Shown: piece by piece, positions 799 through 5,385 of the stretch
How positions within the stretch are numbered: position 1 is the stretch's first letter
Layout of the letters: every line of letters starts with the position of its first letter
Assembly (NCBI GenBank): GCA_035289905.1
Contig: DATDVT010000045.1
Coordinates: 132 to 64,131, forward strand
Reading direction: 5' to 3'
DNA: 64,000 nucleotides
Source: Candidatus Nanoarchaeia archaeon
GTDB taxonomy: Archaea > Nanobdellota > Nanobdellia > SCGC-AAA011-G17 > GW2011-AR18
Notes under the pieces: generated by a model
The model's database searches: none
Seen by the model: the letters and a program-made list of their open reading frames with translations, nothing else
Told to the model about the DNA's origin: nothing
Translations under genes and position numbers: made by a program

Positions 799-1577
799 AT
801 TATCGAATTCTTAATAGCTGTTCTACATTCACATTCTAGATAATCAATTCTTGAAATAACATCTAAAATCAATTTGTTAACATTAGAAGCATTTTTTTTC
901 ATAGTAAAAAATATTTCTTCAACATTAACAATATTATCTTTCCAGCAATCATAATCAGTAATCATACACGCTGATACATAACATAACCCTAATTCTCTAG
1001 CTAAAACACATTCTGGAACTAAAGTCATTCCAATAACATCACAACCCCATGAACGAAACAAATTACTTTCAGCTTTAGTAGAAAATCTTGGACCTTCAAT
1101 AACTACAATAGTTCCTTTTCCATGAAATCTCAATCCCAAAGAAGAAGCTGATGCTTTCAATATCATTCTTAGTTTAGAACAAAAAGGTTCAGCCATAGAT
1201 ATATGACAAACCTCTCTACCATAATAGAAACTTTGTTCTCTTTTGGTAGTTCTATCAATAAACTGATCAACAAAAACAAAATCTCCTGGCCTCATATCAT
1301 CTCTTAAAGAACCAACAGCAGATGCAGCAATAACATGTGTAACACCTAATTCCTTTAAAGCCCACAAATTTGCCCTATAATTTACATTAGATGGATTGTA
1401 ACTATGTTTATCACCATGTCGAGAAATAGTAACAATATCTCTTTCATTAATTTTTCCAATATTTAAAAAACCAGAAGTCATCCCATAAGGCGTATGCATT
1501 TTTATAGTTTCAAGAGAATCAAATATTTTGGGATCATCAACACCAGATCCGCCTATCACACCAATTTTCATAAGCAA
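795..1577 (-). CDS. mtnP: S-methyl-5'-thioadenosine (/5'-deoxyadenosine) phosphorylase, PNP/MTAP family
   Basis: 260 aa; N-terminal KIGVIGGSG, NPSNVNYRANLWALKELGV, GMTLVPECVLARELGLCYV motifs characteristic of MTAP. Confidence 0.8.
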   Translation of the reverse strand: MLMKIGVIGGSGVDDPKIFDSLETIKMHTPYGMTSGFLNIGKINERDIVTISRHGDKHSYNPSNVNYRANLWALKELGVTHVIAASAVGSLRDDMRPGDFVFVDQFIDRTTKREQSFYYGREVCHISMAEPFCSKLRMILKASASSLGLRFHGKGTIVVIEGPRFSTKAESNLFRSWGCDVIGMTLVPECVLARELGLCYVSACMITDYDCWKDNIVNVEEIFFTMKKNASNVNKLILDVISRIDYLECECRTAIKNSIM

Positions 1578-1629
1578 AATATTTCCTTTCTAATTTTAAT
1601 AATTATTAAAAAAGAACCTATACATTGAA

Positions 1630-2277
1630 TTATAACCTTTCACATAGAAATAACCAGCCGAATGGTTTTCCAATACCATTCTGTTTTTCAAGTTTATATG
1701 CCACTCTCATTGCTCTTGTTTCAGGAAGCAACTTAAAAAAATATTTAAAAGAATTATACTTAATATAACTTTGAATTTTTAAAATATTAAAACCATTTCT
1801 ATTAATTTCATTCTCAATTATATCTTTAATCTCTTTATCTAAAATATCAAAAACAAATAATCCGTTTTTCTTTAAAACTTTAAAAATTTGTTTATAAATT
1901 AAAAACCTATCAGAAATATCAAATCTATCTATAAAATCAAAAGAATAAGCTAAATCAAAAAATTCCTCTTGAAAGTTTAAATTAAAAACATCTCCTTCAA
2001 CAACAATCCATTTCTTACCAAGCAACTGTCTTGCTACACTTAACATCTCTTGACTAGAATCTAAAGCAACCCCCTGCCTAAAACCAAACAAATCTTGCTC
2101 AACTCTCCCTAAACCACAAGCTAAATCCAAAACCAAATCAGAGTTTCTTTTTAAGATTAAATTATTTAAAAATTCTGCTTGTAATCTTAAAACTAAATTC
2201 TCAAAATATTCTTCAGATTTATAGTACTTAACAACTCTCTCATCCTGATAATATCTCTTAAATTCCGATCTATCCAT
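1630..2277 (-). CDS. class I SAM-dependent methyltransferase
   Basis: 215 aa; motif I VLDLACGLGRV; Rossmann-fold MTase pattern. Confidence 0.6.
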   Translation of the reverse strand: MDRSEFKRYYQDERVVKYYKSEEYFENLVLRLQAEFLNNLILKRNSDLVLDLACGLGRVEQDLFGFRQGVALDSSQEMLSVARQLLGKKWIVVEGDVFNLNFQEEFFDLAYSFDFIDRFDISDRFLIYKQIFKVLKKNGLFVFDILDKEIKDIIENEINRNGFNILKIQSYIKYNSFKYFFKLLPETRAMRVAYKLEKQNGIGKPFGWLFLCERL

Positions 2278-2320
2278 AATCCTTCCGAAAGGGTAGACTA
2301 TTTAAGATTTACCAAAGGAT

Positions 2321-2342
2321 TTCTCTGGTGCATTAACGGGTG
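2321..2342. repeat. left terminal inverted repeat (22 bp)
   Basis: read directly; perfect reverse complement of 5254-5275. Confidence 0.8.
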
Positions 2343-2361
2343 CTGAAAGCACCAAAAAAAT

Positions 2362-2526
2362 TTAATTTTTCTTTTTAATTATTAATTTCCCGTCTTTTAC
2401 TTCTCCATCTAATTCTTGTCCTGATTTCCATTTAAGCAATTCAAGAATTTTATTAGGAATAACTACCCAAGATTTAATATATTCCGTATCTCCTACTTTT
2501 CTGCTCACCTGACTTTGAAGTTTCAT
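2362..2526 (-). CDS. unannotated 54-aa SpoVT/AbrB-like (swapped-hairpin) small DNA-binding protein, divergent from transposase
   Basis: my translation of minus strand: MKLQSQVSRKVGDTEYIKSWVVIPNKILELLKWKSGQELDGEVKDGKLIIKKKN; pattern K-x-G..(I/V)(V/T)IP..I...L....G.EL...V.DGKLII.K resembles AbrB/MazE/VapB-type antitoxin/regulators; below 60-aa ORF-track cutoff. Confidence 0.4.
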   Translation of the reverse strand: MKLQSQVSRKVGDTEYIKSWVVIPNKILELLKWKSGQELDGEVKDGKLIIKKKN

Positions 2527-2533
2527 AGAGTTA

Positions 2534-2627
2534 TTAGATACCTATTACTTATAAATCTTTCGGTTCCTAATTTTATTACTATATAGATATATTTTAGATA
2601 CCGAAAAGTATATAAAGGTTAGATACC
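2534..2627 (+). promoter_or_regulatory. transposase promoter region: three direct copies of TTAGATACC (2534-2542, 2594-2602, 2619-2627) flanking a TATA-like box GTATATAAAGG (2608-2618) about 20-30 nt upstream of transposase ATG (2638)
   Basis: repeats and TATA read directly; imperfect inverted pair CTTTCGGT/ACCGAAAAG at 2556-2563/2602-2610. Confidence 0.4.
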
Positions 2628-2637
2628 TAAATATATT

Positions 2638-3546
2638 ATGAAAAACAAAGAAATAATCTGTCCGAAGTGCAAGAGTAAGGAAATTAAGAAAGACGGCAAA
2701 CGAAAGACAAATAATAGGGGAAAAGTCCAACGATATAAATGTAAATGTTGCTCAAATAGATTTATCACAGACCCCTTCGCAAGAATGAGAAACACCCCAC
2801 AGAAAATAACCTGTGCTTTAGATTTGTTCTTTAGGGGTTTATCTACTCGTGGAGTTCAAGAACATTTTAAGGCGTTCTTCCCACATAATTCTAACCATAG
2901 CACAATTTTAAGGTGGATTAGAAAATACTCTCTTAAAATTTCTGATTATACAGATAAACTTCAAGTTCAATCTGGCTCTTACATAGAAGTTGATGAGATG
3001 GAATTTCATAGAAGAAAAAGCCATAAAGCAAAATTAGGAATAGATAAAAACTGGTTAATAAATGGAATTGATGTTAAAACAAGATTTCTTATTAATTCCA
3101 CTTATGCAAAGAATAGAAATAAAAAAGAATTAAAATCTGTTCTAAATAAAGTAAAAGATAAAACTCAAGATAGAGTAAAAATTGTTACAACAGATGGATT
3201 AACAACTTACACTAATTTAGTTAAGAAAACTTGGGGTTATGATAACAGATTAGGAAAACACAAAATAATTCATAAAGTTGTAACAGCAAGTAAAGGTGAA
3301 GGTTTTAATATTTGGGTTGAGAGAGTTCATAATTCAATAAGACAAAGAACGCATAGTTTTAGAGGATTACACGGCTCAATTAATTCTGCTTATAGTTTAA
3401 TGAAAGGAATTGAGATATATTACAACTTTATAAAAAAGCACGAGGCATTAAACTACAAAACTCCGTCTGAGTTGGCTATTCCTGAATTAAAATTTGAAAC
3501 TCCTAATAGGTGGATGGAGTTGATTGAAAAATCCAAAACCCTATAA
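2638..3546 (+). CDS. DDE transposase, IS6(IS26)-family-like with N-terminal zinc-finger (archaeal type)
   Basis: 302 aa; N-term CPKCKS...YKCKCC Zn-finger; catalytic-region layout EVDEMEF ... TTDGLTTY ... NIWVERVHNSIRQR ... MKGIEIYYNF parallels IS26 Tnp DETY/TDKAPAY/NNVIECDH/IKGIEV. Confidence 0.75.
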   Translation: MKNKEIICPKCKSKEIKKDGKRKTNNRGKVQRYKCKCCSNRFITDPFARMRNTPQKITCALDLFFRGLSTRGVQEHFKAFFPHNSNHSTILRWIRKYSLKISDYTDKLQVQSGSYIEVDEMEFHRRKSHKAKLGIDKNWLINGIDVKTRFLINSTYAKNRNKKELKSVLNKVKDKTQDRVKIVTTDGLTTYTNLVKKTWGYDNRLGKHKIIHKVVTASKGEGFNIWVERVHNSIRQRTHSFRGLHGSINSAYSLMKGIEIYYNFIKKHEALNYKTPSELAIPELKFETPNRWMELIEKSKTL

Positions 3547-3623
3547 GTTAATTATCTTGGAACACAAAAATGCAAATATTTTTTATTAGAAAGAATTATA
3601 AATCAATCTTCAATAATTTTATT

Positions 3624-4226
3624 ATGATAAAAGCAATAATCTTTGATTTGGGAGGAGTATGTTTTGAAATTGATTGGTTGAAAATTAATGATGAGATGGT
3701 TAAAAAGTTTAATATAACTACCCTTGTTAAATCAGCAGGCAATGAGAAAGCCATAACCTATTACAAGGAGGCTCTTGAAGGAAAGAGGCATCCTATTGAT
3801 ATGTTTAGGGAATTAAATAATAGAGATAACGACTTAAATGATATTATCAAATTTTACAAAGAGATGTATAAAAAATATAAGACTCACAATAAGCAGATAT
3901 ATGAATTAATTAAGAATTTAAAAAATAAATTTACCATTGTATGTCTCTCGGATACAAATGTTGTTCATTATCAAGCTCACGAAGAGCAAGGAACAATAAA
4001 GGACTTTCATCACGTATTTACTTCATTTAAAATTGGCAGTATAAAAAGAGACAAAAATACTTTTAAGAAAGTTTTAAATGAATTGTCAATAAAACCAGAA
4101 GAGACTGTTTTTATAGATGATAACGATAAGAATGTGGAAATAGCAAAGTCTTTAGGCATTAATGGAATAAAATATACTAACTATGAAGATTTGATAAAGG
4201 AATTAGAAAATCTTAAGGTTTTGTAG
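3624..4226 (+). CDS. HAD-superfamily hydrolase (subfamily IA-like); ORF-track start 3570 probably too long
   Basis: motif I IIFDLGGV at proposed N-terminus (MIKAIIFDLGGV); C-terminal VFIDDNDKNVEIAKSLGI = HAD motif IV. Confidence 0.65.
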   Translation: MIKAIIFDLGGVCFEIDWLKINDEMVKKFNITTLVKSAGNEKAITYYKEALEGKRHPIDMFRELNNRDNDLNDIIKFYKEMYKKYKTHNKQIYELIKNLKNKFTIVCLSDTNVVHYQAHEEQGTIKDFHHVFTSFKIGSIKRDKNTFKKVLNELSIKPEETVFIDDNDKNVEIAKSLGINGIKYTNYEDLIKELENLKVL

Positions 4227-4287
4227 TGTAACTATAAAATGGTATCAAAAGAAAGATTTATATAGTTTTTATCTTATATGTTACAAT

Positions 4288-5160
4288 ATGGAATTTATGC
4301 TTGATTCAGCAAATTTAGAAGAGATAAAAAAAGTAAAAGATCTTGGTCTATTGGGCGGTCTAACCACAAATCCCATAATAATTCAAAAAGGGTTAACAGA
4401 ATTAGCTTACAAAGGAAACTTTTTTGATTATGCTAAAAGAATACTAGAGTTGACAGAAGATAAACCATGCTTTTTTCAAGTTGCGACACAATTCAAAGAG
4501 CAAATAATAAATCAAGCAAGATCATTATATGAAAGTTTAAAATCTTTTGGAAACGTGCATATAAAAGTTCCCATAAATACTTCATTAGCAGAAGGAGATA
4601 GTGTTTATGAGGGATTTTCTGCAATCAGAGAATTAAACTCGAAGAATGTTCCAATATTAGCCACTGCTATAGTTACTCCGGTTCAAGCTTATCTTGCTTC
4701 TGTAGCTGGAGCAAAATATGCAGTTTTAATGTTAAGGCCATATGATAATATAATTGCTGAAAATTTGGAAATAGGAGATTTAGGAGAGAGCGGATATCTT
4801 ACCAATAAAAGAGTTCTAGATGAAATGACTAAAAGAAATAAGAGTTTGGATAATTACTTGTCTGGAGAAGAGACCTTAAGGAGAGCAGGTAAAATATTCA
4901 AAGATAGGAATTTAGCAACCAAACTTTTAATCGCAGGAATTAGAAATCCCGTTCAAGCGTCTTGGGTAATGGAAACAGGGGGAGTTTCTGCAATAACTAT
5001 GCCTTATAAAGTATTCAGGAGTTTGTTCAGCCATGAAGGCACTAAAAGGTTTGTCATCTTTTCTGCTGTTCAAAATCTGCCCAAATTTGAGATTGAGATA
5101 TCCAAACGGACATTTTTGGAATGCAGGATATTTCTGCTGTTCTGTCGGAGCGGAGTTTGA
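4288..5160 (+). CDS. transaldolase/fructose-6-phosphate aldolase (Tal/FSA) family protein
   Basis: N-term MEFMLDSANLEEIKK...GGLTTNP (Tal signature) and Schiff-base lysine context NVHIKVPINTS; C-terminal Tal-like IAGIRNPVQASWVMETGGVSAITMPYKVFRSLFSHEGTKRF. Confidence 0.7.
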   Translation: MEFMLDSANLEEIKKVKDLGLLGGLTTNPIIIQKGLTELAYKGNFFDYAKRILELTEDKPCFFQVATQFKEQIINQARSLYESLKSFGNVHIKVPINTSLAEGDSVYEGFSAIRELNSKNVPILATAIVTPVQAYLASVAGAKYAVLMLRPYDNIIAENLEIGDLGESGYLTNKRVLDEMTKRNKSLDNYLSGEETLRRAGKIFKDRNLATKLLIAGIRNPVQASWVMETGGVSAITMPYKVFRSLFSHEGTKRFVIFSAVQNLPKFEIEISKRTFLECRIFLLFCRSGV

Positions 5161-5218
5161 ACAAGTTTTTTCATACATAGAAAATCAACAGATGCATCAT
5201 GCGTAAAACTAAAGGACG

Positions 5219-5238
5219 CCTCGCCCTTTAGGGCGAGG
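5219..5238. terminator. GC-rich perfect hairpin CCTCGCCC-TTTA-GGGCGAGG just inside right IR; possible terminator or transposon-end structure
   Basis: 8-bp GC stem read directly; highly atypical composition for this AT-rich sequence; no clear T-tract follows. Confidence 0.2.
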
Positions 5239-5253
5239 AGGATGTCACAAGAA

Positions 5254-5275
5254 CACCCGTTAATGCACCAGAGAA
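5254..5275. repeat. right terminal inverted repeat (22 bp)
   Basis: read directly; perfect reverse complement of 2321-2342; followed by CCAAAGGAT direct repeat. Confidence 0.8.
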
Positions 5276-5385
5276 CCAAAGGATAAGTCTATTGTTCTCA
5301 AAAAGTAATAGAAATAAACCAACAGAAAAAAATTATAAGAAAAAATTTAACAAAAGAATATAAATTACTTATTTATCTATTTTTT

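Follow-up and report, generated by a model that had tools for sequence, protein, structure and literature searches.

A 64,000-nucleotide stretch of a Candidatus Nanoarchaeia archaeon contig (DATDVT010000045.1, positions 132 to 64,131; hereafter the window) carries, at 2321-5275, what we read as an intact unit transposon with passive and probably accidental cargo, from a DPANN archaeal clade that is a distant relative of the Zn-finger branch within the IS6/IS26 insertion sequence (IS) family. We give this reading a probability of about 0.8. One pair of terminal inverted repeats (IRs) and one target-site duplication enclose a transposase together with genes unrelated to transposition, which is the layout of a unit transposon or transporter IS (tIS).

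The element has precise ends and a single target-site duplication

The original prediction, made from the letters of the DNA, described a transposon of 2,955 bp bounded by perfect 22-bp IRs and a 9-bp duplication, and both features were found and are unique in the window. The IRs (TTCTCTGGTGCATTAACGGGTG and its exact reverse complement) were the only two matches to the 22-mer in the window with up to three mismatches, and no match occurred in 100 shuffled sequences. The 9-mer CCAAAGGAT abuts both IRs on their outer sides in direct orientation and has only these two copies in the window. Two copies of the 9-mer anywhere were obtained in 16 of 100 shuffles, the significant feature being its exact abutment to both IRs, for which we estimate a chance probability of about 1e-5 from base composition. 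A chance repeat or a common 9-mer was thus ruled out by the window counts and shuffles. A shorter true IS ending just after the transposase gene was ruled out as well, since the window holds no internal IR copy (up to three mismatches) that could serve as a right repeat there, and the relatives lack tightly flanking repeats. Because the IRs are perfect and the duplication is intact, the recent insertion that had been proposed is compatible with the data. The whole unit is inserted between an S-adenosylmethionine (SAM)-methyltransferase gene and a glycosylation cluster. No other copies of the transposase, the HAD phosphatase, the aldolase or the IS200 sequence described below were found in the window. 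The features of the element are listed in Table 1.

Table 1. Features of the element and its flanks (window coordinates; IRL and IRR, left and right inverted repeats; ORF, open reading frame).
Feature	Coordinates	Strand	Evidence or remark
Left target-site duplication copy, CCAAAGGAT	2312..2320	.	Abuts IRL; 2 copies in window
IRL, TTCTCTGGTGCATTAACGGGTG	2321..2342	+	Conserved at ends of related elements
AbrB/SpoVT/MazE-like DNA-binding protein, 54 aa, divergent from transposase gene	2362..2526	-	PF04014 5e-5; TIGR01439 AbrB 8e-5
Divergent intergenic region between AbrB-like and transposase genes, 111 bp	2527..2637	.	Presumed promoter/operator, from position only
Transposase, 302 aa, N-terminal 4-Cys Zn-finger, helix-turn-helix (HTH) and DDE domain	2638..3546	+	PF13610 DDE_Tnp_IS240 5.7e-8
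Captured host operon fragment	3586..5054	+	DNA homology to L089-L091 operons
YihX-like HAD phosphatase, intact	ORF 3570-4226, likely start 3624	+	Pfam/NCBIfam
TAL/FSA-family aldolase, cut after codon 256 of ~277	ORF 4288-5160	+	Protein alignment, Pfam/NCBIfam
3' remnant of IS200-type Y1 transposase gene	5055..5206 (ORF 5033-5206)	+	Pfam Y1_Tnp 69-121 of 121, E=2e-10
GC-rich hairpin, CCTCGCCC-TTTA-GGGCGAGG	5219..5238	+	Fold, centroid structure, z=-2.2
IRR, exact reverse complement of IRL	5254..5275	-	Repeat search
Right target-site duplication copy, CCAAAGGAT	5276..5284	.	Abuts IRR

A transposase and a small DNA-binding protein form the core

The gene content given earlier for the element (a DDE transposase, a HAD hydrolase, a TAL/FSA aldolase and a small AbrB-like gene) was borne out by Pfam and NCBIfam. 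The transposase is encoded by a single uninterrupted ORF of 302 codons, with no programmed -1 frameshift, and its residues C8, C11, C35, C38, D119, D186, E228 and R235 are invariant across 34 homologues. In all, 908 transposase homologues were collected. The named ones are from DPANN archaea (Pacearchaeota, Woesearchaeota and Nanoarchaeota), and the labels at source were generic only ("DDE-type integrase/transposase/recombinase").

The AbrB-like gene had been counted among the passengers. Its homologues, however, adjoin the transposase gene in nine DPANN loci and in seven distant archaeal loci (Nitrososphaerota, Thermoplasmatales), and because of this conserved adjacency we regard it as a core partner of the transposase rather than cargo. 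In a comparison of 17 elements, the small neighbour of the transposase gene was AbrB-like in seven cases, ribbon-helix-helix-like in five and a CxxC...CPKC mini Zn-ribbon in four. These three occupants have unrelated folds, and the slot is a constant place for a small DNA-binding protein whose identity varies. The AbrB-like protein would most likely be a regulator of the divergent promoter region that separates it from the transposase gene.

Relatives in DPANN archaea are long and cargo-bearing

The genomic contexts of the relatives were fetched and searched for end-like sequences, giving 20 elements with both ends, the window's included. The same termini were present throughout these 20 elements (Pacearchaeota, Woesearchaeota, Nanoarchaeota). 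Their 9-bp flanks comprised 17 perfect duplications, two matching at 8/9 positions and one unmatched pair, each duplication having a different sequence. Element lengths ranged from 2,391 to 7,341 bp, and all contained extra genes. The distance from the transposase gene varied from 188 to 5,017 bp on the left and from 43 to 4,531 bp on the right, so cargo can occupy either side. Nine further DPANN loci had one end only, the other being lost at a contig end or too diverged. Ends tightly enclosing the transposase gene alone were found in none of the 20 two-ended and nine one-ended DPANN loci. The original prediction had seen in the window a cargo-carrying derivative of an IS6 element of normally about 1 kb; instead, every clade member examined was long and bore cargo.

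The closest distinct relative, P0149, whose transposase is 94-96% identical to that of the window, was present at two sites that differ in their left flanks, CTTAGATGT versus CAGTATCCT (locus L112 from 5726 and locus L113 from 134; JGI 3300024995 / 3300025036), the right ends not being captured. Identity between the copies is 98.3% over 3,077 nt, with homology beginning exactly at the left repeat, and the shared 3.1 kb includes a minus-strand cargo ORF of 612-624 aa with faint Big_13/Y_Y_Y matches. Since the same content occurs at two sites and homology starts at the left end, cargo in this clade demonstrably moves with the element, as judged by comparing the two copies.

Annotation of the relatives' cargo with Pfam and PADLOC revealed mostly restriction-modification systems, DNA methylases or GmrSD. 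The types included GmrSD; an MvaI/BcnI endonuclease with its methylase; Eco57I/MmeI-like type IIG enzymes; a methylase + S + HsdR-N fusion; an EcoRI methylase with GmrSD-HNH; several orphan N4/N6 methylases; and an HNH nuclease and a Schlafen/AlbA protein. Cargo outside defence consisted of radical-SAM pairs with DUF5680, genes resembling aminoacyl-tRNA synthetases and Lrp/AsnC regulators. On these annotations, defence genes are the rule in this DPANN family and metabolic cargo the exception. One 7,341-bp member, from Nanoarchaeota MAG226 (JBFMDT010000003.1; locus L024, 2984-10324), is flanked by the perfect 9-bp duplication AAATAATGG. It holds a CRISPR array of eight repeats GTTGCATTCCTTAATCCCTTTATTCTAAGTATGAAAT (3230-3787), a 579-aa Cas12f1-like_TNB protein, Cas4, Cas1, an N4/N6 DNA methylase and a 98-aa ORF that is possibly Cas2. 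This cargo is a predicted complete type V-like CRISPR-Cas locus, found in this one element.

Among more distant archaeal relatives (~30% identity), a de novo search for ends found GGTTCTGT or GGTACTGT termini with 8-bp duplications in elements of 2.4-10.4 kb (L039, L042, L043, L047, L049, L054, L055 and L067; Thermoplasmatota, Euryarchaeota, Nitrososphaerota, Micrarchaeota); the Micrarchaeota element, L067, combines GG tips with a 9-bp duplication. Because these distant relatives with GG-tipped ends are also long, cargo-carrying would be older than the DPANN clade. In IMG/VR, a search for viral carriage gave only one match, 57% identical and without a recognisable repeat. Literature searches pairing DPANN with transposon and Pacearchaeota with IS, outside which ISfinder lay, returned no description of this family.

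Occupancy of the insertion site and the history of the load

The window allele was found on at least 16 contigs. Contigs with an identical transposase, methyltransferase or glycosyltransferase either had the occupied site or broke off near 2612-2638 or 5111-5267. Several points weigh against our reading of the element. The exact window element is known from one insertion site only, and no empty site was found among the contigs with an identical methyltransferase or glycosyltransferase. What the duplication proves is the insertion here of an element with these ends, not the presence of the HAD and aldolase genes inside it at the time. The regulatory role of the AbrB-like protein is one that we infer, and the activity of the transposase is predicted from sequence. 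Finally, contig L093, if real, would mean that cargo has been replaced in place, the site being the same and the right part of the element different.

Two exact-match scans of JGI metagenomes were also negative and carry little weight: a 26-mer spanning the empty site gave no matches, in a collection whose companion 36-mer scan missed contig L102, and the window-specific 36-mer of the right junction revealed no second site, L102 holding this 36-mer and yet not being returned.

Contig L093 (ERZ28563660 scaffold_77927) matches window positions 1461-3247 with one mismatch in 1,787 nt, through the methyltransferase gene, the left end, the AbrB-like gene and the first 610 nt of the transposase gene. 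From 3250 it is 100% identical to another family member, L012, both in the 3' end of the transposase gene and in an 823-aa restriction-modification fusion. The switch falls within 76 nt that both parents have in common, and the hybrid transposase was seen on one contig only. L093 may therefore be a genuine recombinant allele or, just as possibly, a chimera of the assembly, and we downgraded it as proof of in-place cargo replacement.

These observations bear on a different history, in which the element was inserted with another load, such as the restriction-modification fusion of L012 and L093, and the HAD, aldolase and IS200 sequences later took its place, by homologous recombination with another copy or by an illegitimate event; the metabolic genes would then never have been mobilised by transposition. 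Apart from L093 itself, mosaic identity patterns in other transposases of the family argue for such exchange, as does the breaking of many contigs at 2612-2638 and 5111-5267, which is expected of polymorphic or repeated junctions. We nevertheless consider this history unlikely. The position of the switch in a stretch common to both parents and the single occurrence of the hybrid leave an assembly chimera as an equal alternative, and with three sequences and two segments, if a single event is assumed it is L093 that is recombinant rather than the window allele, which is common (at least 16 contigs). Moreover, the closest relative, P0149, shows cargo travelling with the element.

One other contig departs from the window near this site. 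On L106 (1-1317), from one metagenome, the glycosyltransferase side is joined at window position 5346, 70 bp beyond IRR, to unrelated DNA with a MiaB-like radical-SAM gene. Read inward, the junction starts GGTGATGCAACTGCAACAG, resembling a GG-tipped IS end, and it does not lie at the duplication; it may represent another element or a rearrangement.

The load is a truncated operon fragment joined to an IS200 remnant

The two genes that the original prediction had singled out as an unusual cargo of aldolase and phosphatase are present, but what they form is a truncated operon fragment fused to an IS200 remnant rather than a neat metabolic module. In three relatives (loci L089-L091), HAD and aldolase open a conserved operon of six to seven genes; after them come two unknown genes, a polyprenyl synthase gene, in some cases a B12 radical-SAM gene, and a gene for an aldo-keto reductase. 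DNA homology to these operons begins at window position ~3586 (3619 for L089) and ends precisely at 5054 with each of the three, and the captured fragment includes the promoter-proximal region. The break falls within the aldolase gene: homologues are 270-283 aa long, and the window protein diverges from them after ...SHEGTKRFV (residue 256), so that ~21 native C-terminal codons are absent and the last 34 codons are read-through into the IS200 fragment.

Could the phosphatase and aldolase nonetheless be functional and selected, performing a step in sugar-phosphate metabolism for the host? The HAD gene is intact in most contigs, with a YihX-like FDLGGV motif and a TIGR02247/glucose-1-phosphatase-like profile, and the aldolase has kept the residues that are invariant among homologues, with the lysine of HIKVP among them; in L050, a distant relative, the transposase gene likewise adjoins a TAL/FSA gene. 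A true metabolic transposon is distinctly unlikely, however, as only 1.9 genes of the six- to seven-gene operon are present, the C-terminus of the aldolase is replaced by 34 foreign residues, and no other family member carries these genes. In addition, contig L102 (JGI 3300025311), representing one population, has a 41-bp frameshifting deletion in the HAD gene, at window 3660-3700, just after the catalytic motif, and because of this frameshift the cargo is dispensable. PADLOC gave no defence match for the window HAD protein. The load is probably accidental and would be under weak or no selection, this copy's cargo being most likely an accidental capture.

The TAL/FSA gene of L050 (9295-9927, Thermoplasmatales) lies directly downstream of a distant transposase relative and its product is 25% identical to the window aldolase; the adjacency may be a coincidence or a recurrent association. 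In L090 (3360-3920; GCA_023246445.1), an IS5-type DDE_Tnp_1_5 gene was located just upstream of the native HAD-aldolase operon, and mobile elements may insert recurrently on the 5' side of this operon.

The IS6-like enzyme had been described as the only transposase inside the element, which overlooked the IS200-type Y1 fragment next to the right end. The fragment corresponds to the C-terminal ~50 residues of the protein (NCBIfam IS200, positions 75-126 of 126, 3e-9) and is overlapped in another frame by the aldolase ORF. Its G+C content is 42%, compared with 27-30% elsewhere and 27% for the window. The fragment is dead, since it lacks the HUH/Tyr core and a left end. Between it and IRR stands a GC-rich hairpin. 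A weak full-length match to Rfam HgcC (RF00062; 5132-5257, 23.2 bits for a gathering score of 50) overlaps the IS200 transposase remnant, and the 3' hairpin and GGAGGAxGUCA tail of HgcC match the window hairpin almost exactly, IRR beginning a few bases beyond the hairpin and tail. The hairpin probably belongs to the right end of the dead IS200-type element, and the match points to a correspondence between HgcC-type RNAs and the right ends of IS200-type elements. A literature search for HgcC returned only irrelevant papers.

The transposase is closest to, and distinct from, standard IS6

The original prediction had called the transposase IS6/IS26-like. IS6 is indeed the closest known family: NCBIfam IS6 (NF033587) was the top model for the window protein, aligned from 1 to 202 of 202 positions. 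Strict membership fails, as the score was 77 bits for a cut-off of 125, the repeats have TT tips and the target duplication measures 9 bp. Among relatives, the IS6 model gave 202 bits for a protein from Clostridium neonatale (340 aa, multi-copy), 144 for Methanocellaceae, 126 for Patescibacteria, 106 for Thermoplasmatota and 101 for Nitrososphaerota. The C. neonatale relative, 25% identical to the window protein, is compatible with the Zn-finger clade designated h or VII in the IS6 literature.

The window IR shares C3, C5, T6, G7, T9, G10, C11 and A12 with the end of IS26, GGCACTGTTGCA, and has TT tips in place of GG. The IS6/IS26 family is defined by GG tips, a G at repeat position 7, 8-bp duplications and a size of 0.8-1.8 kb (PMC6807381, PMC7986276), and a DDE triad with K/R seven residues after the E is a described IS6 feature (PMC7986276). 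G7 (TTCTCTG) was present in 20/20 elements, and the window transposase has an HTH before the DDE domain and a basic residue, R235, seven positions after E228. On the other hand, ends in the DPANN clade begin TTCTCTGG (TT, TA, with occasional variants), duplications are 9 bp in the window element and in 19/20 DPANN elements, and the window element, at 2,955 bp, is neither within the IS6 size range nor transposase-only. All told, it departs from IS6 in four of the seven membership features listed, although its mode of action would resemble that of a DDE element of the IS6/IS1 type. IS6 elements move through replicative cointegrates; in the sequence data here, only simple insertions with duplications were observed. 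Harmer and Hall have expressed doubt that archaeal and long clades belong to the IS6 family (PMC6807381). We read the window element as belonging to a divergent archaeal branch of the Zn-finger IS6 lineage, not as a standard IS6, and the DPANN sub-branch as one in which tips and stagger appear to have shifted relative to that lineage.

Some features would also suit the IS1 family. It includes single-ORF archaeal members, and its ISMhu11 subgroup is reported to contain passenger genes and to reach ~4.6 kb (no papers on ISMhu11 were retrieved in the literature search); a 9-bp duplication is typical of IS1, IS6 giving 8 bp. The N-terminal Zn-ribbon of the window transposase resembles those of InsA and IS1-IS1595, with matches below cut-off to PF03811 (17.6 bits; cut-off 26.1) and NF050000 (23.8; cut-off 28); this domain is also present in Zn-finger IS6 relatives. 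The IS1 model (NF033558) gave 59 bits (cut-off 100; E=5e-16). The NCBI name of the L012 homologue is "IS1/IS6 family transposase". That the element is a single-ORF archaeal IS1 with passengers and no relative of IS6 is, all the same, quite improbable. In the window protein and all five relatives tested, the IS1 model scored below the IS6 model, which aligned end to end, and IS1 never attained its cut-off. Distant relatives have GGTTCTGT-type ends with 8-bp duplications as in IS6, clostridial relatives match Zn-finger clade h/VII, and there is no programmed frameshift.

An origin as a compound transposon, or as the remnant of two IS copies flanking captured DNA, is extremely improbable: IS6/IS26 elements usually acquire cargo through compound and pseudo-compound structures (PMC7986276, PMC6807381), but here there is one transposase gene, no second repeat pair or transposase remnant in the element or the 64-kb window, and a pair of IRs at the outer ends with a single duplication, the single-copy architecture also seen in the 20 relatives.

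Discussion

Our reading of the window element as a unit transposon implies the following course of events. The transposase, through its Zn-finger, HTH and DDE domains, would bind the 22-24-bp terminal repeats and join them to a target cut with a 9-bp stagger, and repair of the staggered target would generate the duplication; the duplication is observed, and the chemistry is that expected of the DDE family. The divergent AbrB-like protein would most likely repress or tune the shared 111-bp promoter region. Everything between this core module of transposase and small regulator and the repeats would travel passively. In the window copy, an IS200-type element would have sat just inside the right repeat, and a 1.47-kb 5' operon fragment would have been joined mid-gene to the IS200 3' half by illegitimate deletion or recombination, the order of events being our proposal. 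The whole unit would then have entered its present site.

The family may be of greater interest than the window copy, which illustrates how fragments of housekeeping operons can be picked up by accident. The genomes of DPANN archaea are tiny, few mobile elements have been recognised in them, and little is known of how defence genes are gained and passed on there; a clade with precise ends and duplications is a concrete candidate vehicle for this gene flow. We tentatively suggest that the window element belongs to a large, apparently undescribed archaeal family of unit transposons that arose from the Zn-finger IS6 lineage, combines 22-24-bp ends and a 9-bp duplication with a transposase and an exchangeable small DNA-binding regulator, and always bears cargo; conceivably, it is the main shuttle of defence genes among the ultra-small DPANN genomes. 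Recombination within the conserved transposase gene may allow elements to swap their cargo. A lineage that bridges Zn-finger IS6 elements and IS1-like features, with its stagger shifted and its tips altered, also adds to the doubt about classifying archaeal or long elements as IS6.

Comparison with known systems

The nearest described elements are the clostridial Zn-finger clades of IS6 (h in Varani et al. 2021, PMC7986276; VII/VIII in Harmer and Hall 2019, PMC6807381), for example ISCbo1, ISCpe7 and ISTps1. They share with the window clade a CxxC Zn-finger, an HTH, a DDE domain, the basic residue at E+7 and IS6 as the best model. The clostridial ISs are, however, transposase-only, 1.2-1.8 kb long and flanked by 8-bp duplications (PMC6807381), whereas members of the window clade are found in DPANN archaea, measure 2.4-7.3 kb, have TT/TA tips and 9-bp duplications and carry a small DNA-binding gene as well as cargo. 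In ISDsp3 of Dehalococcoides, too, the terminal repeats enclose a further gene besides an IS6-type transposase, and this is the sole IS6-family member recorded with a passenger gene (PMC7986276). ISDsp3 measures 1,456 bp, carries a single hypothetical gene and has an 8-bp duplication; it stands alone, in contrast to the clade-wide cargo described here.

IS1 elements resemble the window clade in 8-9-bp duplications, possible passenger genes and perhaps an InsA-like Zn-ribbon, and differ from it in their frameshift and in the lower score of their model in every protein tested. The IS200/IS605 likeness is confined to 5055-5253, where the C-terminal Y1 motif region and a GC-rich subterminal hairpin are recognisable; what remains is the last ~50 codons and one hairpin, with neither the HUH/Tyr catalytic core nor a left end.

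In overall organization, the window clade is comparable to bacterial unit transposons and tIS with defence genes, which likewise have a single transposase, terminal repeats, a duplication and passengers. It differs from them in its transposase lineage and archaeal host and in lacking the resolvase and res site of Tn3, and, unlike the defence-carrying tIS, the window copy has a truncated housekeeping operon as its cargo.

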